Part shown: piece after piece, positions 24,086 to 64,000 of the stretch | Layout of the letters: the number at the start of each line of letters is the position of its first letter | Numbering within the stretch: position 1 is the stretch's first letter | DNA from: an uncultured Eubacteriales bacterium | Lineage (GTDB): Bacteria > Bacillota > Clostridia > Peptostreptococcales > Anaerovoracaceae | Length of the DNA stretch: 64,000 bases | Assembly (NCBI GenBank): GCA_902786815.1 | Contig: CADADV010000006.1 | Location: 50,344 to 114,343 of the forward strand | Direction of reading: 5' to 3' | Notes under the pieces: model-generated | Seen by the model: the letters and a program-made list of their open reading frames with translations, nothing else | Database searches by the model: none | Told to the model about the DNA's origin: nothing | Translations under genes and position numbers: made by a program

Positions 24086-24103
24086 CTTTTATTCTTGTTG
24101 TCT

Positions 24104-45434: not shown

Positions 45435-45504
45435 GTACGTTTCGTATAAATCGTTTTTTGCTCTTACACAAAAAACACCGCCGTCCTACCTCAGAAGACT
45501 AACT

Positions 45505-45665
45505 CCTTCAATCTGACAGGTCTACCGACTTAACCTTTATAACCTACTTGGGCGCCTTCCCAGAGCCTTGGCTCCAGTGACTTGCTTTGATGCCAGCCCG
45601 TTCGTCGATATCACGGTTGCTGAGACACAGTGCCGGAATTTCACCGGCTTCCGATAATGTCCAGA
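45505..45665 (-). promoter_or_regulatory. Cobalamin riboswitch no. 1 (long form), leader of the cbiD...btuD operon
   Basis: The minus strand reads GGAAGCCGGTGAAATTCCGGCACTGTGTCTCAGCAACCGTGA ... GTCACTGGAGCCAAGGCTCTGGGAAGGCG ... the B12 box TAAGTCGGTAGACCTGTCAG. Confidence 0.85.
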
Positions 45666-45709
45666 TCTATTCTATTGAATTGTCTTTGGGCTCCTATAAA
45701 CCCATTAAT

Positions 45710-47632: not shown

Positions 47633-49341
47633 CGGATCCTGCGGATGCATGCCGCCACCTCCTCCCAAGTGATCGCGCCGGGGAAGTATTCCCGCGCGAT
47701 CCGGTTGGCTGTCGTCGTATAGAAGTTGTTGCCCGTGAAGAAGCTCTCCGCTTCGCCTTCCGAAATAATGCCACCGTCAAAGAACATGGCGCAGCGGTCT
47801 GCGTACGCAGCGCAGAATTCAATGTCGTGGGAGACCATCAGGATGGTGATTCCCTGTGCGGCGAGATCTTTCAGGATCTCTGCCAGCGTGATCTTAAAGA
47901 AAGGATCCAACCCCTTGGTCGGCTCATCCAGAAGCAAAATCTCCGGTTCCAGCAGAAGCACTTTGCCAAGCGCCAGCCGCTGCTGCTCTCCGCCGGACAG
48001 ATCGTATGGATGGACCTGGCGGAGATGTTCGATCTGCAGCAGCTGCAGCATGGACTCTACTGCGGCTACTTTTTCCTCATCTGTTTTCTCTGCGTAGTGC
48101 AGTGCCTCCAGCAGATCGTCCTCCACCGTGATCTCTGAGAACAGAGCCTGCGGATTCTGTGGCAGCATCGCCGCCCTGCCGCTGATCTGCACCGATCCCC
48201 GCCGCGGCTTCAGGATTCCCTGCAAAACCTTCAGGAGGGTGCTTTTGCCGACGCCGTTTCCACCCAGCAGAGAGTACAATGTGCCGCGCTCCACCTGCAG
48301 GTTCAGATCCCGCAGCACATCCGGCGCGTCCTTTCTGTAACGGAACCACAGGTCCTTTGTCCGGATCGCGAGATCCGTGTCCGCTCTGCGCGGTGCAGGC
48401 GGGCGCGTTTCTGTTTTCTCTTCCCGCACTTCACGCAGGATCTGCCCGGCAGTCTGCACGTCAAGTTCTGCGGTCGCGGCTTCTTCCTTCAGCCAGAGTC
48501 TGCCCTCACGGACCGTCAGCGGACCAGCCTCGCCGGCATATGTCTCCGCTGTTTCCGGATGCTCCTCCCTGTCCGTCATGACAGTATGATAAATCTTCGT
48601 CACGGCGGGCAGTCCGTAAAACATCGGGTGCTGCAGCTGCGCGAGCTTCGCGCCGATGCTCCGCGGAGCATCACAGGAGAGCACGCCTCCATGATCCATG
48701 ACCACAACACGGTCTGCCATGGTAAACGCCTCTTCCAGGCGGTGCTCCGAAAGGATGACGGTTACACCCAGATCACGGTTGATCCTGCGCACCGTCTGCA
48801 GAAATTCCGACGCCGCGATTGGGTCCAGTTGTGAGGTGGGCTCGTCCAGCACCAAGAGCCTTGGCTGCATCACCATGACGGATGCCAGATTCAGAAGCTG
48901 CTTCTGTCCTCCGGACAATTCGCTCACATCCTTTCGGAACCAGCTCTGGATATCAAAATAACTGGCCATTTCCGCCACGCGGCGGCGGATGGTCGCATTA
49001 TCCAGGCCCAGACTCTCCAGCCCGAAGGCCAGTTCGTGCCAAACCTTATCCGTCACGATCTGGTTGTCCGGATTTTGCTGTACGAATCCGATCTCCGATG
49101 CGCTCCTGCGGTCATCCAACGACTCCACCGGTTCCCCGCAATAGAGAACCTCACCTGTCAGTTCCCCGTATGGAATGAGGTTCTTCTTCATCTGGCGCAG
49201 CAAGGTGGTTTTGCCGCAGCCGGACTTGCCGCATACCACGAGGAATTCGGATTCAGACACCGAAAAACTGACCTCCGACAAGGCCGGACGGTCCGCCAGC
49301 GGATAGGTGAAGCTTACATTGTCAAATCGGATCATTTCCAT
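47629..49341 (-). CDS. ECF transporter duplicated ATPase (EcfA1-EcfA2 fusion type)
   Basis: Two complete ABC cassettes: GKSGCGKTT/LSGGQKQ/LVLDEPTSQLD and GGNGVGKST/LSGGEQQR/LLLDEPTKGLD. Confidence 0.9.
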   Translation of the reverse strand: MEMIRFDNVSFTYPLADRPALSEVSFSVSESEFLVVCGKSGCGKTTLLRQMKKNLIPYGELTGEVLYCGEPVESLDDRRSASEIGFVQQNPDNQIVTDKVWHELAFGLESLGLDNATIRRRVAEMASYFDIQSWFRKDVSELSGGQKQLLNLASVMVMQPRLLVLDEPTSQLDPIAASEFLQTVRRINRDLGVTVILSEHRLEEAFTMADRVVVMDHGGVLSCDAPRSIGAKLAQLQHPMFYGLPAVTKIYHTVMTDREEHPETAETYAGEAGPLTVREGRLWLKEEAATAELDVQTAGQILREVREEKTETRPPAPRRADTDLAIRTKDLWFRYRKDAPDVLRDLNLQVERGTLYSLLGGNGVGKSTLLKVLQGILKPRRGSVQISGRAAMLPQNPQALFSEITVEDDLLEALHYAEKTDEEKVAAVESMLQLLQIEHLRQVHPYDLSGGEQQRLALGKVLLLEPEILLLDEPTKGLDPFFKITLAEILKDLAAQGITILMVSHDIEFCAAYADRCAMFFDGGIISEGEAESFFTGNNFYTTTANRIAREYFPGAITWEEVAACIRRIR

Positions 49342-49372: not shown

Positions 49373-50293
49373 CTACTGTTCTCCATTCTCCAGTCGCTCC
49401 CACCGGAGCTCCCCGGCGATGTCCATGATCAGCGGTGTTGCCGCCATCAGGATAAATGCGATCAACGTTACGGCTGTCATCATGTCGAAAGGATGCAGTT
49501 TGTAGACGGGATAGAACCAGGCTTCTGTCTTATGCAGGGCGCATCCGGCGATGCACAGCGCGCCCAGCACGCAAAGCCAGACCATCATCGCGGTATCCCG
49601 GCGCGAAAAACGGTACAGATTGAAGCTGGTACGTCCCCGCAGTCCGTATCCCCGCGCCTCCATGGAATCCGCGCTTTCGATGGAGGACTCCAAAGACCAG
49701 GAAATCAGGATCGACGCGTTCTTGCCGGCCTGCCGCAAGCGCATTTTAAGCGGCGGCTTCGTATCTTCTACTTTGCCCCGTCCCAGACACCGCTGTCCCA
49801 TGCTGATCTCGCCGTACCGGGCGCGCAGCAGCGGAATGTAGCGAAAGATCATGGACAGGGTCAGGCCCAGCACCGGCGCAGCCCGGCCGAAGAGAAAAAT
49901 CAGTTTCTCGGCGGTCATGACGCAGTTGAAGCTGGTGAACCAGATGAGGACGGAACTGAGCATGACGGCTGCCGAAATCCCGTAAATCAGAGCTTCCGCC
50001 GTGATCCGGTTGCCGTGGATAAAGCACAGAACCGTATCGCCGTCGTGGACGAACAGCACGTTGATCAGCGCCATCACCACTACGATCCAGAAGACGAACA
50101 CCAGATTCAGACGGAGAGCCGCCCTGCCTTTGAGCAAAAGAGAGTAAAACCACGACAGGATAAACGTGGCCGCAAGAAACCAGGGCGACATACTGAACAT
50201 GGTGATTCCGATCACCAGCGCGTAGTACACCAGATTGACCCATGGATGGTATTCCGCAAATTCCGTGCGCTCTCCGATTCCTTCCCTGAACAT
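49373..50293 (-). CDS. ECF transporter T component (CbiQ/EcfT family)
   Basis: A polytopic protein with the conserved ARG motifs (MEARGY, and a preceding SLESSIESA helix). The preferred start is MFREG at 50293 (TAATG junction). Confidence 0.85.
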   Translation of the reverse strand: MFREGIGERTEFAEYHPWVNLVYYALVIGITMFSMSPWFLAATFILSWFYSLLLKGRAALRLNLVFVFWIVVVMALINVLFVHDGDTVLCFIHGNRITAEALIYGISAAVMLSSVLIWFTSFNCVMTAEKLIFLFGRAAPVLGLTLSMIFRYIPLLRARYGEISMGQRCLGRGKVEDTKPPLKMRLRQAGKNASILISWSLESSIESADSMEARGYGLRGRTSFNLYRFSRRDTAMMVWLCVLGALCIAGCALHKTEAWFYPVYKLHPFDMMTAVTLIAFILMAATPLIMDIAGELRWERLENGEQ

Positions 50294-50832
50294 TATTTGC
50301 CGCTTCCCCCGCCGGCTTCGCTCTTTGTGTAATCCACTACGTAGACCCAACGGATCTGATCGCCGTCCTTCAGTTCGTATTTCGAACATCCGACATCGGG
50401 CATTTCATCATTCACATAATAGGTCCAGCCGCTCCGTTTGCCTGCGTCCATTTCATACAGATGCCCGATGCCTTCCACATACCTGGATCGGTATACGGAA
50501 TCCTCGCTGCTCTCCATCTGGATGTCCCGGTCACGGCATGTGTTGTACAGGCAGTCGTAGACCGTCTCCCCCTCCGCGAACTTGTACGGAGTCGGCGCGA
50601 GGATCACGCCGTCCGATGGAATGTAATCCCGGATGGATTCCTTCTGCAGCTGGTCCATCTGCTGCGACAGGTCGCTGCAGTCCACCGAAATGGTCACCGT
50701 CCCGGCACTGCCGCCGCCCTGTTTCACGACAAGGCCCGCGAACCCAAGCGCCGCCAGCACCACAAGCACCACGATGATGATAATCGACCGCGCTCTCTTT
50801 TTCTTTGTTTTTTTCAGAAGCTGCTGGCTCAT
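50293..50832 (-). CDS. Membrane-anchored DUF4430 (transcobalamin-like C-terminal domain) protein
   Basis: The preferred start is MSQQLLKKTKKKRARSIIIIVVLVVLAALGFAG, an N-terminal anchor. The C-terminus SGWTYYVNDEMPDVGCSKYELKDGDQIRWVYV is the DUF4430 hallmark (GW.Y.VN...Y.L.DGD.I). Confidence 0.8.
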   Translation of the reverse strand: MSQQLLKKTKKKRARSIIIIVVLVVLAALGFAGLVVKQGGGSAGTVTISVDCSDLSQQMDQLQKESIRDYIPSDGVILAPTPYKFAEGETVYDCLYNTCRDRDIQMESSEDSVYRSRYVEGIGHLYEMDAGKRSGWTYYVNDEMPDVGCSKYELKDGDQIRWVYVVDYTKSEAGGGSGK

Positions 50833-53800
50833 TTTGTCTTTACCTTCCTGACGACAGGCTCTCCCCAATAGGTCTTTCCGCTGACCACTTTATAAGGCGT
50901 GACCTGAACATAATACAGTTTTTTCTTCTTCAGTTTCTTGATAGTATAGGTTATCTTTTTTGTCTTCACCGTCTTCGATGACGACAGATTCTTCTTCAGG
51001 CTGTACTTGATCCGGTATCCGGTCGCCGCCTTGATCTTCTTGACCGAAACAGCGATGGACTTTTTCTTTCCTTTCAGTTTCGGTGCTGTCTTCGAGATTA
51101 TGCAGAAGGAGGATGCGCTGTATGTCCCTTGTCCGCCTGCATTGACGGCGCAGACCTTCACCTCATAGCTGCCGTTTGCCGCAAGACCCGTGATCTTACG
51201 GGATGTGCTCTTGGACGTCAGATACTTCCAGGCGCCGCCCGCCTTTCGGTAAGCGATGCGGTAGGAACTTGCCCTGGCTGCTTTCTTGTATTTGACTGTG
51301 ATCGTCCTGGCAGACGCACTGACGGACGCAGTCTGGCCGGTGACCTTCGCCGGTTTCGCAGGTTTCGGCGGCTCCGGCTGCGGCTGCGGCATAGCGCAGA
51401 CCTTCACCGGCAGCAGGAGTTCCATGCTCCTGCCCCGGGCGTCGATGCCATCCGGCAGGACCGCCTCGCCGCAGATCACAAACTGCTGCTCTTTCTGATC
51501 GACCGGATCATACGCATAGCCGCCTTCCGTTTCCCAGACGATTTCCGTCGTTATCTCAGCTTCGCCGGTTTCCTCTGCGTACGCCTCGTTCATTTTCAGA
51601 TGTGCCTGCACGGACGACAGCATCTCCGTGACCGCATCGTATCCGGTTCCGTTCGGCAGCTCGCTGAAAGCGGCCTGGTCCTCCGGCGCGATATAGACGC
51701 TGTCCGGATCCAGACTGACGCCCGGTGAGGATGGTTCTTCTCCTGTCAGATCCACCGTGTAGATGAAGTCCTCCGGGAAGCTCTTTGCGTAGCCTTTTCC
51801 GCAGGCGATGGCGCGGATCTTCACGGTGACCACCTGGCCCTCTTCACCGATGGAGAGCGGCTGCTCATACAAGGTGCCGCCTGTGGAAGACGGTGCCGGA
51901 AGATCCTCGTCCTCCGTTCCGGTCACGTAGCGGACCTGCGCACCGCTGCCCAGCGCCTGCAGGGCGACCCGGATCGGTTCTGTGTAAGTTCCCGGAGCCA
52001 GACTTGCCACCGGCGGGCGCAGCGTCGGATCGGCTACCTCTACGTGCACCCGCGCGCGGCGGTTCTCCTGGGGATAGGTCACCCAGATCTCTGCCTCGCC
52101 CCGCGTAGCAGCGGTTATGACGCCATAGGAGTCGACTGCCGCAACCTGCGGATCCGAACTTTCGAAGGAGCAGTTCTCCGTCACGTCCACGCCCCCGAAG
52201 GATGCCGATACGGCAGCAGTCCTGCCCTGACCGCTGGTGTACAGCGTAACCGAAGACGGTGACAGGCGGAGCGGCGTATCACCTGTTTCGATGTATTTCT
52301 CACTGCGCTGCAGTGTGACATGATAGGTTCTGGTGACTTTGCCGCTTGGCGATGTCACTTCAACATCCACCTCGGCAGTAGTTCCTCCCTTGACCCAGTA
52401 CACAGGATAATACGAGCTATTGGACGCCCTTTTGATCGTTCCGTCCTCGTTCAGACGGCTCTGTGTATTTCCAACATTATCTACAGGAATGACACGTATG
52501 GCAGCTTCCGGATCCGCCGTCTCCAGCCAGAGCCTGAGGAAGGCTTTCCCCGCATCGACCTCGCAGATCCTGCCAACATAGTCTTCGATTCCGGGATCAA
52601 ATGTCGGATCATATCCGATGCCTTTGTTGGCGGAGACCCAGTCACCGCTGTCCGCAATCTGCGCCGGAGCCGTATTGGATGCGCTGATGTACAGTCCTGC
52701 CAGATTCGCGTTGTTGGACAGGGTCGTCGTATTCAGCGTATAAGTCCTGGTATAGGTTTTCTCACCAACGATCCTGGATACGGTGATCGGTATGGCCGCT
52801 GCGTCCTCTCCTACGGAAACGGAGATCTTCGATCCGGTGTACTCCTCACCGTCCACGCGGGCCGTCATGCCATCGGGCACCTGCAGCCGCACATCTACTG
52901 CAGCGGCATCGTTCGGCGCCTGCAGACTGTAGTTCAGGATCCCCGGTTCAAACGGATAATCCCATACCAGTTCCTGCTGCCCGTACTTCACGCTGATGTC
53001 ATTCAGATAGGCTTTATTAAGAGCGACCGCCATCAGGTGACCGCTGTCGTTTTTGTAGTAGAAGGTTCCTTCCCGGTCGCAGCAGAGCGGGCTGATGCAG
53101 TACTGCTGCATGGATAATTCCGGGCGGAACAGGAGCTGCGGAGACGCATGACTTTCTGCGGTCGCCTCCGGGCTGTCCTCCAGACAGTAGATCCCGCCGG
53201 GAAATGCGTTGAATGTAAAGTACAGACGGACCTTGCCATCCGTTTTCTCTGTCGCCGTCGAAAGCAGCGGCGATGCCTGCGGATAACCGGAGATCGGGAC
53301 CGTATAGATCAGCGAACGGTCGGAAAGTGTGTCGTCATCCCGGATCACCGCGAACATGTGGCCGCCGTCCGCACTGAACTGGCCGCCGGCGCCCGCCGCG
53401 CCGACGTAGATCCTGCCCTTATATACGACCGGCGTGGAGGTCATCATCGCGTCCACCTTGTCTGTGGTGCTTTTGCCTCTTACCTGTAATTGGATATAGG
53501 ATGTATTGCGGAACTTTCCGTCCGTTCCGAAGTCCGCCTTATACAGCCGTCCGCCTTTGGATACGAAATAGATGTGTCCGTTGTCGTACACTACCGTGCT
53601 GCGGATGTCTCCCTTGACGCCCGTGATCCGGTCCACGACCTCACCGGTCCGGCGGTCGAAGCTGTAGACAATGGCAGTCTCTGTATATCCCCCGGCTTCC
53701 GAGAAGAGGTTGTCGGTACCGTCATCGGATCCGACAACGACGTAGTTCTCATCAACGTAACTTCCGGCCCAGTAGAAACCGTGCGGCGTTTCGCCGTGCT

Positions 53801-54443
53801 CCGACGGAACGTACTTCCATTTGGCTTCACCGGTCGCTGCGTCCAGACAGAAGAAAACGCCATCCTTTGTTTCGGTCTCCCAGATCCCGGTGTAGACGCA
53901 GCCGTCCTGATAGCTGATGGGCGACAGCGTCTGACTGTACCGGTATTCATCGGAGATCCACTTGGAGCGGAGCGTGTCCGCATCCAGGCACTGCACGCGG
54001 CCTTTCATGATCGGAACAAAGAGCTGGTCGTTGTCCGCATCGTAAGTGATCGGGTTCATGCCGTATCCTACGTTCAGTTTCAGTTCTTCACTTTCCTTCA
54101 CGATCTCTCCGGTATTCTTGTTGATCCGGTACACGTGGGTGCTGGACGCAGTGTACAGATACCCGTCGATGATGAGCGGCGGTGTGAAAGAAGTGGTATA
54201 TCCAGAAACCATCTTACGGCTCCACTTCAGCGCAGTCTCCTCATAGACCGACGGCGTTTCGATCTCACCGATGACGCCGTTGTTCGTCGGACTGTTCTGG
54301 TACTGTCCCCACTCCACATCGCGCTCTGTCGCATAACTGTCCGATGCAAAAGCAATCCAGGCCATGCCCAGAAACAGAAGCAGTACCACCCCTGCTTTGA
54401 AATAGAATCTGTTTTGTCTCGCGTGTTCCCTCATGTTGCTCAT
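50829..54443 (-). CDS. 1204-aa secreted multidomain protein. From N- to C-terminus: PQQ/BamB-like beta-propeller, two cadherin-like beta-sandwiches, Big_2, an Fn3-associated module, and two highly basic FN3/Ig-like modules.
   Basis: The signal peptide is FYFKAGVVLLLFLGMAWIAFASDSYA. Repeated W/Y-rich blades span roughly aa 40 to 480. LNDISVKYGQQELVWDYPFEPGILNYSL and LAGLYISAS... are cadherin-like. LRLSPSSVTLYTSGQGRTAAV...AEIWVTY is Big_2-like. The C-terminus is KK-rich. No LPXTG motif and no C-terminal TM segment. The start may be the ATG at 54434. Confidence 0.8.
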   Translation of the reverse strand: MSNMREHARQNRFYFKAGVVLLLFLGMAWIAFASDSYATERDVEWGQYQNSPTNNGVIGEIETPSVYEETALKWSRKMVSGYTTSFTPPLIIDGYLYTASSTHVYRINKNTGEIVKESEELKLNVGYGMNPITYDADNDQLFVPIMKGRVQCLDADTLRSKWISDEYRYSQTLSPISYQDGCVYTGIWETETKDGVFFCLDAATGEAKWKYVPSEHGETPHGFYWAGSYVDENYVVVGSDDGTDNLFSEAGGYTETAIVYSFDRRTGEVVDRITGVKGDIRSTVVYDNGHIYFVSKGGRLYKADFGTDGKFRNTSYIQLQVRGKSTTDKVDAMMTSTPVVYKGRIYVGAAGAGGQFSADGGHMFAVIRDDDTLSDRSLIYTVPISGYPQASPLLSTATEKTDGKVRLYFTFNAFPGGIYCLEDSPEATAESHASPQLLFRPELSMQQYCISPLCCDREGTFYYKNDSGHLMAVALNKAYLNDISVKYGQQELVWDYPFEPGILNYSLQAPNDAAAVDVRLQVPDGMTARVDGEEYTGSKISVSVGEDAAAIPITVSRIVGEKTYTRTYTLNTTTLSNNANLAGLYISASNTAPAQIADSGDWVSANKGIGYDPTFDPGIEDYVGRICEVDAGKAFLRLWLETADPEAAIRVIPVDNVGNTQSRLNEDGTIKRASNSSYYPVYWVKGGTTAEVDVEVTSPSGKVTRTYHVTLQRSEKYIETGDTPLRLSPSSVTLYTSGQGRTAAVSASFGGVDVTENCSFESSDPQVAAVDSYGVITAATRGEAEIWVTYPQENRRARVHVEVADPTLRPPVASLAPGTYTEPIRVALQALGSGAQVRYVTGTEDEDLPAPSSTGGTLYEQPLSIGEEGQVVTVKIRAIACGKGYAKSFPEDFIYTVDLTGEEPSSPGVSLDPDSVYIAPEDQAAFSELPNGTGYDAVTEMLSSVQAHLKMNEAYAEETGEAEITTEIVWETEGGYAYDPVDQKEQQFVICGEAVLPDGIDARGRSMELLLPVKVCAMPQPQPEPPKPAKPAKVTGQTASVSASARTITVKYKKAARASSYRIAYRKAGGAWKYLTSKSTSRKITGLAANGSYEVKVCAVNAGGQGTYSASSFCIISKTAPKLKGKKKSIAVSVKKIKAATGYRIKYSLKKNLSSSKTVKTKKITYTIKKLKKKKLYYVQVTPYKVVSGKTYWGEPVVRKVKTK

Positions 54444-54467: not shown

Positions 54468-55685
54468 TCAGTAGACCCCGTCCGCCAAGGAAAAAATCAG
54501 GTTCAGTTCGTCGCCGTCCTCCAGCTTATAGGATCCCAGTCCACGTTCCGGGAAGGTTCCGTTCACGCTGTAGATCCATCCGGAGGAGTCATAGAAATCA
54601 TGTTCTTTCAACTTGTTCGGATCCTGGTCTGCCGGATCTTTCTCGGTCTTTCGCAGTTCCTCCATGGTCGTCCGGACCTCGTCGGTGATATAGGCCCCCT
54701 GTGCGATGCCGCTGCGGCTGATTCCTGACAGATATCCGCCGCGGAAAGTTGGATCGATCCCTGCCTGGGAAAGAGCCGTCTCCAGTACATCCTTGGCCGT
54801 ATCCCCGCGGGTGATCTCAATGGTCCCCTCATAGAAGGCTCCCAGATTCAGAATCTCCGCACTGACAGAAACGTAGACTTCCCCGGTGACCTCCGCCGCG
54901 GCAGAAGTGTTTCCTGTGAAGTTCACTGTCTTTGTTTTATCATGGCCTTCCCGGTCCACTGCAGTGACGGCGATGGTGTTCTTTCCGTCTTTGAGGGCGG
55001 TCCTGAACCAGGTCTTCGACCCGTCCGCGCCTTCGCTGGAAAGGGGCTCGCCATTACAGCTGACCATAAAACTGCCGTCGCTTTCGGAGAACACGGGGAT
55101 GTTCCTGCCTTTGTAATCTGTGACGGTCACCGAAAAGTCCAGCCGGGTCCCATTGACCACTTCCCCGCCGGCAACGCTGATTTTGATCGTGGGCTCCATC
55201 GCCCGCTCTTCCTCTGACTTTGTGGGGTCTGTGGGATCGGTGGGATCTTCTGTCTTTGAAGGTTTCGTCGGCTCTTCCTTTGTCGGGTCAGTAGGCTCCG
55301 TTCTTTTATCTGGTTTCTTTTTGCCGCTATCCGGTTTCTTCTTGTTGCCGGACCCCGGGTTCGCGGGCTTCACGCTGCCGGGACGGATCCGCTTTGGTGC
55401 AGTTTTCTGATCCTTCTGTGTTTCCTGCTTTTGCTTGAGTTTTTCTTCCCGCTGCTTTTCCTGCTGTTTGTGGATCTTCTCCTGCTGTTTGTCCAGCTTG
55501 TATCCTTTGCCATCCAGATAGACCTGCGAACGTTCCACATTCATCTGCGCCGCCTGGACCTGGGGCACATACTCTTCCTGACCATTGAGAATGACCGCCA
55601 GAGCGCACACGATAAGGAGGGTCATTGCTGCCGCAGCGACCAGAAAAATCCGTCTCCTGTTTGTGCGCCCTTTGTTCTTTCTCAA
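54468..55685 (-). CDS. Membrane-anchored protein with a charged linker, an Ig-like domain and a C-terminal DUF4430 domain
   Basis: The N-terminal anchor is IFLVAAAAMTLLIVCALAVIL. A KQQEK / PTDPTK low-complexity region follows. The C-terminus is SSGWIYSVNGTFPERGLGSYKLEDGDELNLIFS. Confidence 0.8.
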   Translation of the reverse strand: MRKNKGRTNRRRIFLVAAAAMTLLIVCALAVILNGQEEYVPQVQAAQMNVERSQVYLDGKGYKLDKQQEKIHKQQEKQREEKLKQKQETQKDQKTAPKRIRPGSVKPANPGSGNKKKPDSGKKKPDKRTEPTDPTKEEPTKPSKTEDPTDPTDPTKSEEERAMEPTIKISVAGGEVVNGTRLDFSVTVTDYKGRNIPVFSESDGSFMVSCNGEPLSSEGADGSKTWFRTALKDGKNTIAVTAVDREGHDKTKTVNFTGNTSAAAEVTGEVYVSVSAEILNLGAFYEGTIEITRGDTAKDVLETALSQAGIDPTFRGGYLSGISRSGIAQGAYITDEVRTTMEELRKTEKDPADQDPNKLKEHDFYDSSGWIYSVNGTFPERGLGSYKLEDGDELNLIFSLADGVY

Positions 55686-56662
55686 AACAGTTTCTCTCCC
55701 TGCGCCGCCAGCAGCGCACTGTCAATAGCACAGAGCGCCTGCTCTGTGGCCATCACATCCATTTCATCTCCATGCAGATGGGAGAACCCATCTGCGCATC
55801 TGTACAGCATCAACCCATCAAGAAGGGTGCTGCCCTTCGCAAAATCCTCCGCTTTCGCGGGATCCTCTCCGAGTGCCGCTACTGCCATGACCACCTGGGA
55901 GGTGGATTCGCTGTTGCCGTAGTCTCCGCCCGGATGCTGCTGGGTGGCAAGCCACCCCTTTGCGGCTGCCAGCGCATCTGCGATCTGCTGATTTTCCCCT
56001 GCAAAGGGCGCCAGGGCCTGCATGGCCATGGCTGTGATATCCACATCCGCAGTCTGTCCGTCATAAGTGATGCTGCCGTCCTCCAGCTGCATTCCGAGGA
56101 TATCTTCGATATATGTTTCCCGGGCTTTCAGTTCTCTCCCGCAGCAGGCCGCTGCGTTCAGCGCCCAGATCTCGGCGTTGATTCCCTGCGCTTTTACAGT
56201 TTCCGTATCCTCCTGCTGCGCCAGAAGATCGAAGCCTTCCACATCCTGCGGATCGCCGCCGATCATCTGCAGGGCGATGGCTGCTTTTGCATTATCTGTA
56301 GGCCGATCCGGATCCAGCACGCCGTCTGCCCGCTTCACCGCGAGACGCAAGGATTCTTCGTACTGCATGAACAGAGACTGCGCCTCTGCTTCCTTCCCCA
56401 TGGAAGACCCGGCGATGCCGATGATGCTCCATTCATTACCTGGTCCGACCTCTTCTCCTGAAAGCAGCCGGATCAGCTGGACTGCGGTTTCCTTTTCGAC
56501 CTGCGCCAGATCTGCAGTCTGCGCTGCCGCAGCCTGCTCCGTATTCCCGGATGCAGGATCAGGACTGTCTGTACTGTCATTTCCTCCGCAGCCTGCCAAA
56601 AGCAGCAGCAATACGCTCAGGCAGAGTGCCGCGATCCAGTTTTTCGTTTGCTTTCTTTTCAT
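55682..56662 (-). CDS. Lipoprotein with a prenyltransferase/terpene-cyclase-like alpha/alpha-toroid domain
   Basis: The preferred start is MKRKQTKNWIAALCLSVLLLLLAGCGG (lipobox) at 56662. Periodic helical-hairpin repeats carry W/G-rich turns (EWSIIGIA, NAEIWALNA, DITAMAMQAL, TSQVVMAVAAL, MATEQALCAI). Confidence 0.72.
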   Translation of the reverse strand: MKRKQTKNWIAALCLSVLLLLLAGCGGNDSTDSPDPASGNTEQAAAAQTADLAQVEKETAVQLIRLLSGEEVGPGNEWSIIGIAGSSMGKEAEAQSLFMQYEESLRLAVKRADGVLDPDRPTDNAKAAIALQMIGGDPQDVEGFDLLAQQEDTETVKAQGINAEIWALNAAACCGRELKARETYIEDILGMQLEDGSITYDGQTADVDITAMAMQALAPFAGENQQIADALAAAKGWLATQQHPGGDYGNSESTSQVVMAVAALGEDPAKAEDFAKGSTLLDGLMLYRCADGFSHLHGDEMDVMATEQALCAIDSALLAAQGEKLF

Positions 56663-58769
56663 ACATCCCCCGTTCATATTCTTTCCAGATGGCGGTACGT
56701 TCGTCCTCCTCGACCGGAAGCTCACTGAACGCCGCCCGTTCACCGATCTCAACTGTCTCCGCAGACAATTGCAGGCCTTCATCCATCATGCTTCCATAGA
56801 TGGCGCAGATCCCCTTTCGTATGTCCGGATCGGCGAACGATCTCATCCGCCTGCGATAGGCGATCCGGCGCCGGATCACTTTCTGCAGGATCCACACAAG
56901 TAGCAGGAGAAGCAGAATCAGTCCTGCTGTGAGCAGGAAGCGCAATAGCTTTTTCCCGTAATTAACGGCCGGTTCCTCCTCTTCTTCCATCGGAGGAATG
57001 TCCAGCTGCTGGTCGTTCTGTTTCTTATAATTCACCGACTCCAGGCCTCGTGTGAGATCTGCCTGCGGCATGACATCCTGCCATCCCGGCGTAAACTCCA
57101 TCGGCACCCATCCGAAGCCGTCGACATAGATTTCCGTCCACGCGTGGGCGTGGCTGAAGCCGATATCGTAAGGCTGTCCTGCTTTTGCAGCTGCGGCATC
57201 GGCCGGCGTGAAGAGATAGCCTTCCACATAGCGGGCCGGAATGCCGTAGTACCGCATCAGCATTGTCGCCAGAGAAGCATAGTGCGCGTCGCAGCCTTTG
57301 CCTGAAATCAGGAAGCGCTCGATGGGATCCTCCCCCTTCTTCGGAGATTTGAACTTCTCCGTATAGATGAAGTTTCCATCCAGATAATCCCGGACTGCAG
57401 TAATGGCCCGCCTGTAATCCGCATGGTCGCGTGTCAGATCTCCGGGATCGCCCATGGCCATGTACAGCGTGCCCGCAAGCTCCTCGGGTACGTCGGTATA
57501 ATGTTCATAACACCACACGTTGTAGTGGCTCTCACTTGTATAATAGTTCTGCAGCTGCGGACTGCTGTCCGTGCTGTAAAGTCTCCCTACCCAGTCCGTC
57601 CAGCTGCCTGTCATATCCGGCAGAGCCTGATAGACCGCAGTCTTTGTCCCGAACAGTTTGTCTGTTCTGAGAAATCCACCGGCGTAATTCTGCGCGCCCT
57701 GCGGAATCGCTTCACTCGTCCCCGTTATTTCGTAAGGTGTGTAGATGCAGGAACAGTCGGCTTTTTTCGTCTGTACGGTGCACGCGAACGGCTCACCCGC
57801 CTGCTGCGGGTCGGATAACTGCGCCGTCAGCGCGAGCTGCGACAGGCCGTCGAAGCCATTCCGGTTCAGCCAGTACTGGATATCCCGCCGGCTGTAATAG
57901 GTTTCATTGCCCAGGTCCGTCCACTGGTGACCGCGGTAGGTTTCGCCGACAAATCCGCGAAGCCAGCAGGACTGCAGCGCGCCGTTCTTCTGATCTATTG
58001 TCAAGGTCAACGCTGTCTTTGTCTTGTCTTTGCCTCCTGCACTGAGCAGCTGCAGTACCTGATCTGAACTTCCCCGCAGATCAGTCAGTGATTCTCCGGT
58101 AAGCCCTTCCAGATCTCCTTTACCCAGCGGATTCTTCCCGTAGCGCTTATCGAGCTGTTTCGTGATGGCCGTCTGGGTCTGCTTCTGCAGCGCGCTCTGG
58201 GAAAGCCCCGCCGTGTGATCGATCAGCATGCCTGCTGCAAATGTGATGATCAGCGCCGCCAGCGGGATCGCCAGCAGGAGAATGTGCCCTCCCTCTGTCT
58301 GCTGCATACAGGCAAACGCGCACACCAATGCAAATCCAAAAACCAATGCGGTCCATGCTCCGGGCGCGGCTCCGGTAAGAAGCAGCAGCCCCGTGCCGGG
58401 CAGTGCGAAAACCAGGAGCAGCCACTTGCATCCGCTGCGCAGGATCAGATACGACAGCACGCATAGCAAAAGCAACGCGATGGTCAGGAAGATTCCCTGG
58501 GGATGATAGCTTCCGTCTGCCGCTGCACCGCCTGCGAATTTACGCAGGATAATGTAGTCGGTGGTTCCCAACCGGTCTGCGATGCTGTTGCAGACACTGA
58601 GCAGTCCCTGCAGCGGTGCGCCGCTGAAAGCCCCGGCCGGACTCCACTGCAGCCCGAATGCGGAGCATCCTGCTGCGAAGGTGCTCCCGCCGAGCAGGCA
58701 TGCGCACAGGACTGCCAGGACCTGCTGACTTCCACCCTTACTCGATTGTTCCGAATACGTTAACTGCAC
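56577..58769 (-). CDS. Transglutaminase-like (papain-fold) polytopic membrane protein, TgpA-like
   Basis: About 6 N-terminal TM segments, a large extracytoplasmic region with GCDAHYASLATMLMRYYGIPARYVEGY...HAWTEIY (the Cys-His-Asp transglutaminase core), and a C-terminal TM segment. Its last 86 nt overlap the next gene. Confidence 0.85.
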   Translation of the reverse strand: MQLTYSEQSSKGGSQQVLAVLCACLLGGSTFAAGCSAFGLQWSPAGAFSGAPLQGLLSVCNSIADRLGTTDYIILRKFAGGAAADGSYHPQGIFLTIALLLLCVLSYLILRSGCKWLLLVFALPGTGLLLLTGAAPGAWTALVFGFALVCAFACMQQTEGGHILLLAIPLAALIITFAAGMLIDHTAGLSQSALQKQTQTAITKQLDKRYGKNPLGKGDLEGLTGESLTDLRGSSDQVLQLLSAGGKDKTKTALTLTIDQKNGALQSCWLRGFVGETYRGHQWTDLGNETYYSRRDIQYWLNRNGFDGLSQLALTAQLSDPQQAGEPFACTVQTKKADCSCIYTPYEITGTSEAIPQGAQNYAGGFLRTDKLFGTKTAVYQALPDMTGSWTDWVGRLYSTDSSPQLQNYYTSESHYNVWCYEHYTDVPEELAGTLYMAMGDPGDLTRDHADYRRAITAVRDYLDGNFIYTEKFKSPKKGEDPIERFLISGKGCDAHYASLATMLMRYYGIPARYVEGYLFTPADAAAAKAGQPYDIGFSHAHAWTEIYVDGFGWVPMEFTPGWQDVMPQADLTRGLESVNYKKQNDQQLDIPPMEEEEEPAVNYGKKLLRFLLTAGLILLLLLLVWILQKVIRRRIAYRRRMRSFADPDIRKGICAIYGSMMDEGLQLSAETVEIGERAAFSELPVEEDERTAIWKEYERGMYEKKANEKLDRGTLPERIAAAFGRLRRK

Positions 58770-59862
58770 CGTAACGTTCCAGCCTTTCTGTATCTCGCTC
58801 TCCCTGGGCGCTCACCAGGAAGTGGTTCGTGAAGTTCACGCCTTCCGGACTCTCCAGATACCGGATCACTGTTGAGACATCGCTTACTGCGAACCCGCAT
58901 CCCAGTACATCCGGCACGCTCGCCCAGAGTTCTTCTTCTGAACGCACCTGCCGCCGCATAAACATCTCCTCCCTGCTGTCATACCAGCCGATGCTGTGGG
59001 GAATGGATTTCTCCAGCAGCGCCGCAGACATGGAGTACATCAGTTCCACCAGTGCGCTTCGCTGTGCCGGCGGCACCTGTGCCTGCGGATCCAACAGATT
59101 ATCCAGGATCACCAGTATGTTGTTCTCTATCGGAAAGGACGGGATCTTGACCGTCACTTCGCCCAGTTTCGCCGTCAGTTTCCAGTGGATCTGTTTCAGA
59201 CTGTCGCCTTCCTGGTATTCCCGTACGCCGAACACTTCACCCGGATCGCTTCCCTTCTCATACTGGGAATACTGGTAGCTCTCCATATTGTAGGAATCCA
59301 GAAACTCCGCCGGAATCTGCGCCGGATGCAGCTGCGGCGCGAAGTAGCAGGCGGCCGTGGATGTATCCGGCCCATGCTCATCCTGCCCCGCAGTTCCGAC
59401 TTCCGCCGGCGCTGCGAACAGACGCAGCGGGTCAAGGACTGTCATCTCCGGCATCTTCAGTTCGACTTTGCCGCAGTACTGATCCGTCAGGTCAAAGTTA
59501 TAGCGCCGGTTTCCTCCCGGCGGCAGACTGAAGGACACCGGAATGCGTCTGCTTTCTCCAGTGAGAAGATTCACCGCTTCCGCCTCTCCTGTACCACAAA
59601 ATACCGGTAGTTTCCCCCGGTTTTGCAATTCCATTTTGATTGTCATGGTCTCGCCTTTGCTGACCATGTCGCCGCCTGTGAATCCTGCTGTCAGTTTCCG
59701 TCCGCTCAGGCGTGTCAGCAAATACGCCGCAACGGCGTAGATTACTGTAAACAGCAGGAGCGCGCTCACCGCTGCCTGCCCTTTGAAAAAGAACAGGATC
59801 AGCAGAACGAGTGTCCACAGGGCAAACAGAATGCGGTTTCGCCTTATCTGTGTGTTCTGCAT
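58738..59862 (-). CDS. DUF58 protein (vWA-like), the usual MoxR partner
   Basis: Two N-terminal TM segments and the DUF58 motif GVREYQEGDSLKQIHWKLTAK. Confidence 0.85.
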   Translation of the reverse strand: MQNTQIRRNRILFALWTLVLLILFFFKGQAAVSALLLFTVIYAVAAYLLTRLSGRKLTAGFTGGDMVSKGETMTIKMELQNRGKLPVFCGTGEAEAVNLLTGESRRIPVSFSLPPGGNRRYNFDLTDQYCGKVELKMPEMTVLDPLRLFAAPAEVGTAGQDEHGPDTSTAACYFAPQLHPAQIPAEFLDSYNMESYQYSQYEKGSDPGEVFGVREYQEGDSLKQIHWKLTAKLGEVTVKIPSFPIENNILVILDNLLDPQAQVPPAQRSALVELMYSMSAALLEKSIPHSIGWYDSREEMFMRRQVRSEEELWASVPDVLGCGFAVSDVSTVIRYLESPEGVNFTNHFLVSAQGERDTERLERYGAVNVFGTIE

Positions 59863-59887: not shown

Positions 59888-60823
59888 TTATTTCCTTACA
59901 TCCGGCTGCGGTACGCTCTGCAGGATTTCCCCAATGATCGTTTCCGCATCCTTGCTTTGTACATTTGCCTTCGAACTGAGCATAAGCCGATGCCTTGCGA
60001 TATCCGGAAATACGTCCTGCACGTCCTGCGGGGTGACGAATTCCCGACCGTGCAGATAAGTCCATGCCTGCGCCATGGCGGTCAGGGACAGCGCCCCGCG
60101 CGGGCTGATTCCCAGCCGGATCAGCGGATGCTGCCTTGTCCTGCGGCACAGCACCGTAACATACTGATAGATCCTGTCATGGACATAGATTTCCTTCGCC
60201 TGACTGCGCATAGCCAGAATAGCCTGGGCTCCCGCTACACGTTCGATGCTCTGCAGTGGATCCGTCCTCCTGCGGTCTTTCAGGATATCGATCTCTGCCT
60301 TCTCATCCGGATACCCGATAGACAGCTGCACCATGAACCGGTCCAGCTGCGCCTCCGGCAGCATCTGGGTTCCCGCCGTTCCGATCGGATTCTGGGTCGC
60401 AATGACAATGAATGGTTCCGGGACCTTCGTCGTCCGTCCGTCCACAGTAATGTTTCCTTCCTGCATGACTTCCAGCAGAGACGATTGGGTTTTGCTGGAT
60501 GTCCGGTTGATCTCATCAGCCAGGAGAATGTTGCACATGGCTGCGCCCGGCCGGTACATGAGTTTACCGCTTTCCTTGTTATATACCGTAAAACCTGTGA
60601 TGTCCGACGGCACGACGTCCGGCGTGAACTGCACCCGGTTGAACTTCAGATCCATGGCTTTGCTGAAGGCCAGCGCCAGGGTGGTCTTGCCCACTCCCGG
60701 AATGTCCTCCAACAGAATGTGTCCTCCGGCGATGATCACCGTAAGCACCTTGCGGATGATTTCTTCTTTTCCCAGAATGGCCTTGCCGACTTCTGTTTCA
60801 ATTCTGTGTAGCGTTGGATTCAT
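59888..60823 (-). CDS. moxR: MoxR-family AAA+ ATPase
   Basis: ILLEDIPGVGKTTLA (Walker A), ILLADEINR (Walker B), and the VIATQNP sensor region. The length is 311 aa. Confidence 0.93.
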   Translation of the reverse strand: MNPTLHRIETEVGKAILGKEEIIRKVLTVIIAGGHILLEDIPGVGKTTLALAFSKAMDLKFNRVQFTPDVVPSDITGFTVYNKESGKLMYRPGAAMCNILLADEINRTSSKTQSSLLEVMQEGNITVDGRTTKVPEPFIVIATQNPIGTAGTQMLPEAQLDRFMVQLSIGYPDEKAEIDILKDRRRTDPLQSIERVAGAQAILAMRSQAKEIYVHDRIYQYVTVLCRRTRQHPLIRLGISPRGALSLTAMAQAWTYLHGREFVTPQDVQDVFPDIARHRLMLSSKANVQSKDAETIIGEILQSVPQPDVRK

Positions 60824-60840: not shown

Positions 60841-60878
60841 AAACAAAAAGACGCAACGAAATCAATGCTCGTTACGTC
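60841..60878 (-). terminator. Intrinsic terminator; expression platform of riboswitch no. 4
   Basis: GACGTAACGA-gcattgatt-TCGTTGCGTC (10 bp including one G-U pair) followed by TTTTTGTTT. It lies 17 nt before the moxR ATG, with the RBS AGGAGA between them. Confidence 0.7.
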
Positions 60879-60934
60879 CGATATTTTGCGCAAGCTGTGT
60901 GATGCGCAACCCAAGTCGCGCACCTGCTATTTCC

Positions 60935-61130
60935 CTATCATAGGTCTTCTGGCTCGCACGGTTGGTAAAACCTGCCGTCCATTCGCCTTCTCAAGGGATT
61001 TCCCTCAATGACTGACTTTCGTCCTGAATGGCGGCCTGCCGCGCTCACAGCACCGGTCAAATGCCCAGGATTTTCACCTGATTCCCTCATCCCTGCAGCC
61101 ATACGCCGCAAGGTCATGACAGTTTTTTTG
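60935..61130 (-). promoter_or_regulatory. Cobalamin riboswitch no. 4 (long form), leader of the moxR...ECF operon
   Basis: The minus strand reads GAGGGAATCAGGTGAAAATCCTGGGCATTTGACCGGTGCTGTGAGC ... GTCAGTCATTGAGGGAAATCCCTTGAGAAGGCG ... the B12-box-like GAGCCAGAAGACCTATG. Confidence 0.8.
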
Positions 61131-61138
61131 TCATGATT

Positions 61139-61222: not shown

Positions 61223-62833
61223 CTATTTCACCACTACCTTCACGATGATATTCCTGGCTGCTGCTTTGTAGTTGGTGTTTGCAGCCGAAGTGACTTTCAC
61301 TTTGATTTTATAGGTTCCTTTTTTGGTCTTTTTCTTGACCGTGATCTTACCGGTCTTACTGTTGATGGAGAGTCTGGAGGAGCCGCTGAGTTTCCTGTAC
61401 TTCACTGCGCCGCCCCGTTTCTTGACAGTGATGGCGGAGACTGTCCGGGCCTTCTTCTTCAGTTTCGACGCCTTCAGCGTCTTCTTCGTCGCCTTTACTG
61501 TCATCTTCTGCCCGGCTCTGGCAATCTTATAGGTCGCCTTGGTAACACCGGTATAAGCGCCTTTGCCCGTGATGGTTACCGTGTAGGTGCCGGCGTTCTT
61601 TGAGGAGGAATTGGACCAGGTAGCGGTGTAATCGGTCCCCGCCTTCAGGGCCTTGCCACCAACGGTCTTGATTGATGGCCTCTGTACCTTGCCGTTGTAG
61701 GTGAAAGAAGCATCGGACAGAACGACCTTCGCGTCTTTGATGCTGCACTCCCACTTTGCTTTCAGGGTGATATCCTCTGTAACCGCCCATGCAAAATCAT
61801 ACAATTTCGTTTCGACCCCATTGAGAGTCCAGCCTAGGAAAGTGTAGCCTTCTCTTATCGGATCTGCCGGCTTTCGCACCTGCGCATAACGAGGAACGGT
61901 CATGACATTCGGCATCGTTCCGTTGTCCGGATCAAATGTCACTGTCGGGTCATCTGATGGAATCGCGTCTCCTGTCACATTGATGATCGAAATGGCGGGC
62001 GCGGCATTCGGATAATTCATGTGCTGCGGTCCGCTGGCGATGTAATATGTTCCCGGTGCTGTGAAACGGAACGTGCAGCCACCGTGTTCGTCTGTTACTG
62101 CAGCCAATTTAGACCAGGTGCTTCCCTGATCTGAAGAAACCCTGATCGCCTCACCGGCAAGGGGTGCCAGGGATGATGTGTTTCCAGACAATCCCGCATT
62201 CGTCGATGCACCTTTTAAATTGAATGTTGCTGTCTCCCCTATTCTCATGCTTTTGCTTTCCGGTTCGAAACAGCAGAAACCCCCTGAATTGTGGAATGTC
62301 CAGTCCTTGAACATTCCGATATCAATGGTGTCGCCTTCCTCCAGAACGATCTGGTCGCAGGTTGCGCCAATCCCCGGAGCCTTGACCGGATATGCGTGAT
62401 TGACAAAGTACATGAGGTTCTCGTCATGGCCCCAGAAATGCTTCAGATACAGGCTGCCCGGATTATTCGTGATCTCCATGGCGCTGCCTGCAAAATCTTC
62501 CGGCGTCATCGTCCTACCGAGGTAATACTGCTCCGTGATCCGGATGAACATATGGAGCAACGTCGGGTACTTCCCTTCCGCCCCGCTGTACTCAAACCGC
62601 TCAAGGCCATACGCGGCCAGATCGAAATACTCTACCGTAACAGGTGTTTCCGCGAGCAGGGTCCCCTCTGTTCCCCGCACGAAATCACCGTCCTCGCTCA
62701 CGGTCAGATAGACCGTCACAGCATCGCTCTCCGTCTGTGCATGCACCGACGGCGCATGAACAAGGAACAGCAAAAGCAACAATGCTGCGGTTATGATCAC
62801 GTGTATCGTTTTCTTTGCATCTATACAGATCAT
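61223..62833 (-). CDS. Secreted protein with an N-terminal DUF4430-like domain, an unknown beta domain, a Listeria-Bacteroides (Flg_new) repeat, an Ig-like module and a basic C-terminal module
   Basis: The signal peptide is IITAALLLLLFLVHAPSVHA. The DUF4430-like string is LYLKHFWGHDENLMYFVNHAYPVKAPGIGATCDQIVLEEGDTIDIGMF. VTFDPDNGTMP...REGYTFLGWTL...DITLKAKW is Flg_new-like. The C-terminus is KKKTKKGTYKIKVKVTSAANTNYKAAARNIIVKVVVK. Confidence 0.7.
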   Translation of the reverse strand: MICIDAKKTIHVIITAALLLLLFLVHAPSVHAQTESDAVTVYLTVSEDGDFVRGTEGTLLAETPVTVEYFDLAAYGLERFEYSGAEGKYPTLLHMFIRITEQYYLGRTMTPEDFAGSAMEITNNPGSLYLKHFWGHDENLMYFVNHAYPVKAPGIGATCDQIVLEEGDTIDIGMFKDWTFHNSGGFCCFEPESKSMRIGETATFNLKGASTNAGLSGNTSSLAPLAGEAIRVSSDQGSTWSKLAAVTDEHGGCTFRFTAPGTYYIASGPQHMNYPNAAPAISIINVTGDAIPSDDPTVTFDPDNGTMPNVMTVPRYAQVRKPADPIREGYTFLGWTLNGVETKLYDFAWAVTEDITLKAKWECSIKDAKVVLSDASFTYNGKVQRPSIKTVGGKALKAGTDYTATWSNSSSKNAGTYTVTITGKGAYTGVTKATYKIARAGQKMTVKATKKTLKASKLKKKARTVSAITVKKRGGAVKYRKLSGSSRLSINSKTGKITVKKKTKKGTYKIKVKVTSAANTNYKAAARNIIVKVVVK

Positions 62834-62854: not shown

Positions 62855-64000
62855 TCACTTAACCTTGATTTTTACGGTTACAGTCTTGCTGCCTGCTTTA
62901 TATTTCGCATTTCCGGCAGCGGTTACCTTCACTTTGATCTTATATGTTCCTTTTTTCGTTTTCTTCTTGACTGTGATATTGCCATTCTTGGCATTGATCG
63001 TCAGCTTGCTTGAAGAACCCTTCAGTTTCTTATATGTGACTTTGCCCTGATTCTTCTTGACGACCAGAGCCTTCTTGGCGATCTGTTTTTTCTTTTTCAG
63101 TTTCTTGTAGGATACCTTCTTTGTGACCGCCTTGACTGTCATCGGCTGCGTCTTCTTGACGACAGTCGGCTTTTCACTCTTTACGATATTGAACGTCACT
63201 TCTTTGGTTCCATAATAATCACCGATGCCAGTTACCGTAACCGTCGCCTTGCCAAGTTTTATGTTGTTCTTATACTCAACTGTGTAATCAACATTCTTCT
63301 TAAGCACACCTTCTGAATTAGCTGATCTTCCATACTTCTCACCTACAACAGATATCTTTGGCGTTATTGGTTTGCCAGTATACTTTTGGTCTGCAATTGC
63401 TGATACAGAAGTTATTGGCAATTTCCCATAGTTGTCAGTAAAGTACTGCGGATAATTCTGCTGGTATTTTTCATGTGCAATCTCAAAGCATGACTTACCA
63501 TTATATAAATCAACCAAAGCGCCTAAAGTCTGATATGTCGCCATACGGTTAGGACTGCCATATAGAACGCCACCATCGACTATCTCTCCACAAAGACAAG
63601 TCAGAAGACTCCCGTATTCTTCTTGAAAATCTCCTGTATTAAGATCTTCCGCAGACAATCCGGCCAGAACCAGTGTATTAACAGCAACGGCGCTACTGTC
63701 AGCATTATTACCTTTCCATATTTTACTGATATCTTCTGATTCTGAAGGATTCCATGTCATAGCGCCATTTATGCTAATATTATGGCCCGCTACCATCCTT
63801 ACGTATTTTGACAATGCATCTTTACATTGCTTGCCATACATAATATCATTTTCAAAAAATCGAAGCGCCATAAGTGACATTGAAAAGCTATCGCTTATAC
63901 CTTTATTTTCTGAACACCCACTGATCCAATCAACTTGTTTTTTGATTTGAGATCTTCTCATCTCACTGGTATATCCTTCTTCTGGCGTCGCTCCTGCGAT
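62855..64000 (-). CDS. Surface protein, C-terminal part: alpha/alpha-toroid-like domain, Ig-like module and basic C-terminal module. The 5' end lies beyond 64000.
   Basis: The frame stays open from 63961 to 64000 (IAGATPEEGYTSE precedes the track's Met). Helical-repeat sequence is present (FSMSLMALRFF, SSAVAVNTLVLAGL, MATYQTLGALVDL). The C-terminus KKKTKKGTYKIKVKVTAAGNAKYKAGSKTVTVKIKVK is nearly identical to that of 61223..62833. Confidence 0.65.
   Translation of the reverse strand: MAGATPEEGYTSEMRRSQIKKQVDWISGCSENKGISDSFSMSLMALRFFENDIMYGKQCKDALSKYVRMVAGHNISINGAMTWNPSESEDISKIWKGNNADSSAVAVNTLVLAGLSAEDLNTGDFQEEYGSLLTCLCGEIVDGGVLYGSPNRMATYQTLGALVDLYNGKSCFEIAHEKYQQNYPQYFTDNYGKLPITSVSAIADQKYTGKPITPKISVVGEKYGRSANSEGVLKKNVDYTVEYKNNIKLGKATVTVTGIGDYYGTKEVTFNIVKSEKPTVVKKTQPMTVKAVTKKVSYKKLKKKKQIAKKALVVKKNQGKVTYKKLKGSSSKLTINAKNGNITVKKKTKKGTYKIKVKVTAAGNAKYKAGSKTVTVKIKVK

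Follow-up and report, generated by a model that had tools for sequence, protein, structure and literature searches.

Separately encoded transcobalamin alpha- and beta-like proteins and a CbrT-like ECF transporter in a riboswitch-headed operon of an uncultured Eubacteriales bacterium

The DNA analysed here is a 64-kilobase (kb) stretch from an uncultured Eubacteriales bacterium of the gut or rumen (CADADV010000006.1), referred to as the window; gene coordinates are window positions, and all genes between 46.5 and 64 kb are on the minus strand. In this region, a gene for a lipoprotein with an alpha/alpha-toroid fold (55682-56662) is directly followed by a gene for a membrane-anchored protein ending in an SLBB domain (54468-55685), a name used here for DUF4430 (PF14478). 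There is good support for the view that these two proteins (pair A) are separated counterparts of the transcobalamin alpha and beta domains. They are encoded in an operon of approximately 14.5 kb with a cobalamin riboswitch at its head and an energy-coupling factor (ECF) transporter at its end. Domains were called using Pfam and riboswitches using Rfam, fold matches are from Foldseek searches of AlphaFold models against the PDB, and profile-profile comparisons were made using HHalign.

The toroid gene has an ATG start at 56662, preceded by a GGGGG ribosome-binding site. The N-terminus of the protein, MKRKQTKNWIAALCLSVLLLLLAGC, is a signal peptide ending in the canonical lipobox LLAGC. The initial annotation, made from the sequence alone, described this product as a lipoprotein of the prenyltransferase/terpene-cyclase toroid type, and the description holds: in addition to the lipobox, the AlphaFold2 (AF2) model (pLDDT 91.6, pTM 0.85) is all helical and forms an alpha/alpha toroid, and profile searches match terpene-cyclase and prenyltransferase repeats. 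The protein contains a single toroid of approximately 280 amino acids (aa). The best PDB matches of the model are bovine (2bb6_A) and human (4zrp_B) transcobalamin (E value approximately 9e-4, TMq 0.52-0.57), and the alpha6/alpha6 toroid of the transcobalamin family is recovered in it, with terpene cyclases scoring equally. PF01122, the signature of the eukaryotic cobalamin-binding protein family, is matched by 12 of 37 toroid relatives (best E value 1.8e-5).

Within the toroid family, conservation is highest at D-V-D-I-T-A-M (residues 206-212, approximately 56030-56050 on the minus strand), a motif that can be aligned with the DxDDTA catalytic motif of squalene-hopene cyclase. This alignment fits an alternative explanation in which the toroid, as a member of the prenyltransferase/terpene-cyclase superfamily, is an enzyme or binds wall or lipid, and in which its link to DUF4430 is unrelated to ligand clamping. 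Consistent with such a role, the toroid family profile (37 sequences) matches squalene-hopene cyclase repeats in the PDB (E value 5e-15) as well as drimenyl-diphosphate synthase, complement TED domains and prenyltransferase beta subunits, and NCBI names the relatives 'terpene cyclase/mutase family protein'. The same motif, however, also aligns to H172-H173-S-V-D176-T-A-A-M-A of human transcobalamin, the segment with the histidine reported as cobalt ligand. The hallmarks of class II terpene cyclases (DxDD and a two-domain beta-gamma architecture) are absent: the motif reads D-V-D-I, with Asp206 and Asp208 followed by Ile in place of the third Asp, and the product is an extracytoplasmic lipoprotein with one toroid. 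An active terpene cyclase was rejected as a candidate for these reasons (export, single domain, incomplete DxDD). Given also the steady linkage of the toroid to SLBB genes, ECF genes and B12 riboswitches (described below), we regard the broader enzyme or wall-binder explanation as highly improbable.

The beta half of pair A is a 405-aa protein consisting of an N-terminal transmembrane (TM) helix, a spacer of approximately 150 aa rich in K/P/E/T, an immunoglobulin (Ig)-like domain, and the C-terminal SLBB/DUF4430 domain (approximately 54474-54947). Pfam recognizes DUF4430 over residues 366-396 only (E value 1.5e-8); an iterated SLBB profile built in this analysis extends the match to residues 247-404 (E value 7.7e-24), in agreement with the DUF4430 ending initially assigned to this gene. 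The coupling of the two genes by an ATGA overlap, as first annotated, is incorrect in detail: at the junction (cTGTTTTGAg), a TTG start overlaps the TGA stop, giving TTGA. A 179-aa, TM-anchored protein encoded at 50293-50832, directly upstream of the ECF T component gene, had been described as a stand-alone DUF4430 protein and is one, since the Pfam match covers the full domain (E value 5.4e-19; own SLBB profile, E value 2e-45). The window has two canonical SLBB genes, these two, and one that is divergent.

PDB sequence searches using the toroid protein alone or either SLBB protein alone returned nothing useful. At the profile level, the top PDB match of the bacterial SLBB family is the transcobalamin beta domain, and HHalign aligns the profile to the human beta domain with 89% probability (E value 2e-6; the human sequence used was confirmed against PDB chain 7qbf_A). 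The C-terminal beta-grasp domain of the transcobalamin family is therefore represented, as PF14478, in both the 405-aa and the 179-aa proteins. The one-polypeptide arrangement of that family is not found in the window, where the halves are encoded by two genes with the TTGA overlap. Mammalian transcobalamin, intrinsic factor and haptocorrin (PF01122 plus DUF4430; PDB 2BB5, 2BB6, 2PMV, 4KKI) likewise combine an alpha/alpha toroid with a beta-grasp domain bearing a hairpin insert, but mammalian transcobalamin is a single soluble polypeptide, whereas the window encodes two membrane-tethered polypeptides with weak sequence similarity in the alpha half and B12 binding that is only predicted.

A second pair (pair B) is encoded further upstream. 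Its alpha half (62855-64000) corresponds to the last 381 aa of a surface protein of 934 aa, which is cut by the window end; the full-length gene is found at positions 7175-9979 of L081, a matching contig in a public assembly that extends beyond the window. The part within the window comprises the second half of a divergent toroid and lysine-rich Ig-like repeats, and residues 371-750 of the full protein align to the toroid family over 241 columns (HHalign 98.9%, E value 1.3e-17). The beta half (61223-62833) is a 536-aa secreted protein in which a divergent SLBB-like N-domain (approximately 62306-62728) is followed by an Ig-like domain, a Listeria-Bacteroides repeat and lysine-rich repeats, Flg_new being the only feature that Pfam sees. 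This N-domain aligns to the SLBB profile over 83 columns (HHalign 91%, E value 1e-6). In the AF2 model of the N-terminus, the order strand-strand-helix-hairpin-strand fits a beta-grasp with a hairpin insert, as in the transcobalamin-like SLBB clade; a Foldseek search with this model, which includes the adjacent Ig domain, returned Ig-domain matches only. Pfam and plain hidden Markov model searches did not link pair B to the toroid and SLBB families (3.6 and 1.8 bits), and the recurrence of the pairing upstream, claimed in the initial annotation, is recovered by HHalign only. The pairing does occur twice, and pair B is a divergent subfamily. Its relatives in large protein libraries are few: 17 for the SLBB-like domain (in 5.8 billion protein clusters) and 32 for the toroid. 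Homologs of the 536-aa protein occur in other toroid/SLBB clusters (L003, L004, L011 and L052). Its N-terminal region (61940-62833, minus strand), missed by the Pfam DUF4430 model, has a conserved FWGHDENLMY followed by GATCD..L..GD.ID.

Lysine-rich Ig/fn3-like repeats (e.g. KKGTYKIKVKVTAAGNAKYKAGSKTVTVKIKVK) end the 934-aa and 536-aa proteins of pair B and also a 1204-aa protein of the main operon (62855-63300, 61223-61700 and 50829-51500, respectively, all minus strand). The Pfam matches in these repeats are limited to weak ones to Cadherin, He_PIG and MG2, and the repeats are probably wall-binding modules. The two halves are thus separate and individually tethered, as first proposed, with a lipid and a TM anchor in pair A and lysine-rich Ig/fn3-like C-terminal modules on the larger partner proteins.

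To place these pairs in context, 80 loci were kept for comparison from at least 552 loci with toroid relatives, found in a scan using one genome per species; all 80 are from Bacillota. The nearest toroid relative among the matches listed is from a ruminal Candidatus Copromorpha metagenome-assembled genome (82% identity). A separate SLBB gene lies directly downstream of the toroid gene on the same strand in 55 of the 80 loci, and toroid and SLBB share one open reading frame in 31 (SLBB first in 21, toroid first in 10). Counting fusions together with directly adjoining SLBB genes on the same strand, either downstream or upstream, the association is found at 71/80 loci. The co-occurrence of the two families, suggested initially as a check, is therefore clear, and the pairing is far beyond chance. 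Seven loci have no detectable SLBB. ECF genes are present in 48 of the 80 loci. Gene order identical to that of the window was found in three (L001, L002 and L004), and several others are permuted.

The natural fusions, in both domain orders, provide a Rosetta-stone argument for physical cooperation of toroid and SLBB. Together with the conserved adjacency and the translational coupling, they argue for a physical partnership of the two proteins. Transcobalamin, in which a single ligand is contacted by both domains, is a structural precedent for a clamp; by analogy, a B12-induced heterodimeric clamp around one cobalamin is plausible for the bacterial pair. When intrinsic factor is cleaved by proteolysis, its alpha and beta fragments reportedly reassemble on cobalamin (work attributed to Fedosov and colleagues, 2004). 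A different arrangement would be a relay of independent binders, in which each SLBB protein binds a corrinoid alone and the toroid is a separate binder or a docking platform, with no shared clamp. The isolated beta domain of transcobalamin reportedly binds cobalamin by itself (as attributed to Bloch and colleagues, 2017), a finding that speaks for the clamp proposal as well as for a relay. A relay would also fit the three or four SLBB paralogues in the cluster alongside fewer toroids, the seven loci with a toroid and no detectable SLBB, and the precedent of Bacteroides BtuG, BtuH and BtuJ, which work as multi-protein relays of independent binders. It fits poorly with the tight adjacency and overlap of separate toroid and SLBB genes in the 55 loci, with the fusions, in which the linkers between domains are often short, and with the single ligand contacted by both transcobalamin domains. 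We therefore consider a relay without a shared clamp to be rather unlikely.

The main operon is headed by a cobalamin riboswitch aptamer (60926-61132, minus strand) that matches the full-length Rfam model RF00174 with 56.5 bits (gathering threshold 31.5). Between the aptamer end at 60926 and the start of the first gene at 60823, a terminator-like hairpin with a T-run (60849-60879; a 12-base pair stem, then TTTTTGTTT) is the probable expression platform of an OFF switch. From this first gene, moxR, to the last, which encodes the ECF S component, genes overlap or are spaced by no more than approximately 30 nucleotides (nt).

The distal end of the operon encodes the importer. The T component (49373-50389; Pfam CbiQ, E value 1.2e-6) probably starts at an internal ATG near 50293. 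It is followed by a fused EcfA-EcfA' ATPase (47629-49341; two ABC_tran domains, E value 7e-55) and by the S component (46595-47668; Pfam ECF-ribofla_trS and ECF_trnsprt), for which the sole PDB sequence match is 6FNP chain A, from the B12-specific ECF-CbrT transporter (E value 2.4e-7). The operon accordingly has the composition of an ECF-CbrT-type system, with a CbrT-homologous S component and both T and A components. Compared with ECF-CbrT of Lactobacillus delbrueckii (6FNP, PMC5997447), the window S component is larger (357 aa vs 182 aa), the ATPases are fused, and the transporter is encoded with candidate extracytoplasmic binders. The S component is approximately twice the usual size and has an N-terminal extension of approximately 87 aa before the ECF S domain, with a TTG start that is uncertain.

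Cobalamin riboswitches are frequent in this region. There are four in the window (23979-24094 minus, 27299-27485 plus, 45498-45685 minus, and the operon head), and two more are located just past its end (L081:1-183 and L081:5171-5356). The one at 45498-45685, next after the operon, heads cbiD, a tetrapyrrole-methylase gene and cbiG. The riboswitch at L081:5171-5356 (102 bits) precedes pair B, and a further riboswitch lies ahead of a 949-aa protein that carries Big_3 and DUF4430 domains. In the window and L081 together, cbi biosynthesis units are under the control of these elements, as are three or more surface-protein operons in succession, and the organism seems to combine corrinoid synthesis with scavenging. 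Because of the cobalamin riboswitch, the CbrT-like ECF transporter and the neighbouring cbi genes, the B12-related nature of the system is well supported. Cobalamin riboswitches were also found in 8 of the 15 related loci scanned with Rfam, in most cases ahead of the cluster; apart from these, the cis-regulatory RNAs found in the 15 loci were a single NiCo riboswitch and a single T-box leader.

The first three genes of the operon encode a MoxR-type AAA+ ATPase (59888-60823; Pfam AAA_3, E value 2.5e-55, plus AAA_lid_2), a DUF58 protein, the usual MoxR partner (58738-59862; E value 5.2e-5, slightly under the curated cut-off, and syntenic in related loci), and a multi-pass membrane protein with a transglutaminase-like core (56577-58769; Pfam Transglut_core, E value 9e-22), the gene of which overlaps the start of the toroid gene by 86 nt. 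This riboswitch-controlled triad is the least expected element of the cluster. MoxR/DUF58/transglutaminase genes adjoin the toroid gene in 14 of the 80 loci, and triad-bearing loci include L001, L002, L004, L006, L007, L010, L011, L013, L057, L061 and L065. We found no link of MoxR/DUF58/transglutaminase to cobalamin in the literature searched, where the triad is known only from the Bifidobacterium PFNA cluster, without a B12 connection.

Between the two canonical SLBB genes is the gene for the 1204-aa surface protein (50829-54443), which has a PQQ-like beta-propeller, cadherin-like, Ig-like and fn3 domains (Pfam PQQ_2, Cadherin-like, fn3) and the lysine-rich C-terminus. Homologous propeller genes are present in at least nine related clusters. 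The propeller region (52974-54353) has no PDB sequence match at an E value of 1 or less, so homology to BtuG was not detected by sequence. The Bacteroides BtuG/BtuH/BtuJ systems share the functional logic of the window, in which B12 controls several surface-exposed proteins that would hand corrinoids on to a transporter, and one window component is a beta-propeller. They differ in their outer membrane/TonB envelope, which has no equivalent here, and in the folds of the binders, with no homology detected by sequence.

Taken together, these features make it likely, in our view, that the operon encodes an apparatus, repressed by B12, with which a Gram-positive (Clostridia-type) cell scavenges corrinoids, and in which ligand-induced assembly of toroid and SLBB proteins would feed a CbrT-type importer. 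When B12 is scarce, the riboswitch (61132-60926) would permit transcription through the approximately 14.5-kb operon, giving, in order, the MoxR/DUF58/transglutaminase triad, the lipid-anchored toroid, the membrane-anchored, long-stalked SLBB/DUF4430 protein, the large wall-spanning beta-propeller protein, the short membrane-proximal SLBB protein, and the CbrT-type ECF importer. The SLBB domain would capture a corrinoid and the toroid would then, most likely, close over it in a ligand-induced assembly; alternatively, the toroid might take the corrinoid over in a relay. The corrinoid would then pass to the small SLBB protein and to the S component for ATP-driven import. The more divergent pair B, carried on wall-associated proteins and encoded in the riboswitch-controlled operon before this one, would act further out in the wall.

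A number of observations weigh against this proposal. The window toroid protein has no Pfam match at an E value below 0.01, including to the PF01122 (Cobalamin_bind) signature. Drimenyl-diphosphate synthase and squalene-hopene cyclases tie with transcobalamin for the toroid fold (Foldseek, TM approximately 0.5-0.57), and the alignment of the toroid profile to the alpha domain of human transcobalamin is weak (HHalign 11.6%, over HHSVDTAAMA...GHFGN). The likeness to transcobalamin drawn in the initial annotation therefore stands in part: the alpha and beta halves correspond, through the top fold match and the beta domain alignment, but the toroid matches terpene cyclases just as well. The several SLBB paralogues of a cluster could each bind alone, without a toroid. 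The organism has cbi biosynthesis genes, so scavenging is not obligatory, and carriers of the family usually lack a B12 pathway according to Burroughs et al. 2007 (PMC1796856). The literature searched yielded no binding or interaction data for bacterial members, no experimental B12-binding test of any of them, and no experimental work on DUF4430, Gram-positive corrinoid-binding surface proteins or cbrS. Finally, in Lactobacillus sakei a deletion mutant of a similar cluster had reduced heme content (10.1101/864751).

This last result belongs to an explanation in which the pair scavenges heme or another tetrapyrrole instead of corrinoids, as argued for L. sakei Lsa1836-1840. The 2019 preprint describes separate beta-like (Lsa1839) and alpha-like (Lsa1840) proteins with export signals, encoded beside ECF S, A-A' and T genes (Lsa1836-1838); the two are modelled as a heterodimer feeding the S component, and heme is docked into the modelled alpha/beta heterodimer (10.1101/864751). 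Both clusters encode the alpha-like and the beta-like protein separately, beside an ECF transporter. The L. sakei cluster differs in the ligand argued for and in that its authors mention no B12 riboswitch (10.1101/864751); the window cluster, in which the SLBB protein is stalked and a propeller protein, pair B and the MoxR triad are also encoded, is much larger and is controlled by a B12 riboswitch. In the present operon, the heading cobalamin riboswitch, a class that recurs in related loci, and the neighbouring cbi genes point to corrinoids, as does the match of the S component to CbrT, since hemin does not compete with cobalamin for ECF-CbrT (PMC5997447). Heme as the main ligand was rejected here in view of the cobalamin riboswitch and the CbrT-like S component, and we give a heme- or tetrapyrrole-scavenging role in this organism very little credence.

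The preferred corrinoid-scavenging interpretation is not new in outline. Burroughs et al. 2007 (PMC1796856) defined the SLBB superfamily and described bacterial transcobalamin-like members with signal peptides, toroid fusions in either order, second SLBB paralogues in the operon, a beta-propeller fusion and CbiO/CbiQ linkage, and predicted that these members scavenge B12 and that animal transcobalamin is of bacterial origin. The window belongs with this clade: it shares the domains, the secretion or anchoring, the SLBB paralogues, the beta-propeller and the CbiO/CbiQ-type (ECF) linkage, as well as the predicted function, and its anchored proteins (TM anchors, lipobox) are encoded in one operon with EcfT, EcfA-A' and EcfS. 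The emphasis of that paper is on fusions, whereas the window has separate overlapping genes in a host with cbi genes; the MoxR/DUF58/transglutaminase triad and the heading riboswitch are features of the window operon that are mentioned in neither the abstract nor section 7 of that paper. The arrangement was thus predicted computationally in 2007 and again in 2019, its novelty is limited, and the novelty implied in the initial annotation was overstated given these two precedents (PMC1796856; 10.1101/864751). Peculiar to this locus are the two pairs in tandem riboswitch-controlled operons, the MoxR triad inside the operon, and the host with cbi genes.

Much less is understood of how Gram-positive bacteria of the gut and rumen compete for corrinoids than of the Bacteroides BtuG/BtuH/BtuJ system, and the family described here is widespread, with at least 552 loci in species-representative Bacillota genomes. 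As a model, a transcobalamin that is split by nature would lend itself to studies of ligand-induced two-domain assembly, of the proposed bacterial origin of animal B12 carriers, and of the use of external capture proteins by ECF transporters. By the usual account, ECF transporters work without external binding proteins. A doubtful but consequential generalization is that, in many Bacillota, ECF B12 importers are served by an extracytoplasmic capture machine of their own, a split transcobalamin in which a lipid-anchored toroid and a stalked SLBB protein assemble on a corrinoid, and that this machine is assembled, remodelled or attached to the wall by the co-transcribed MoxR/DUF58/transglutaminase module. 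If true, this would contradict the textbook view of ECF transporters and would provide the first defined client for the widespread MoxR-DUF58-transglutaminase triad.

Some minor features of these loci are also of interest. A NiCo riboswitch (L057:20762-20839) lies at the edge of a related toroid/SLBB/MoxR cluster that also bears three cobalamin riboswitches. In the window, an 888-aa clostripain-family (Peptidase_C11) protein is encoded at 24401-27067 (minus strand), between two riboswitch-controlled cbi units. The cbiK cobalt chelatase gene (27540-28871, plus strand) is located directly behind the strongest riboswitch (109.9 bits), and its product has approximately 150 extra aa at the N-terminus, with the Pfam match beginning at residue 154.

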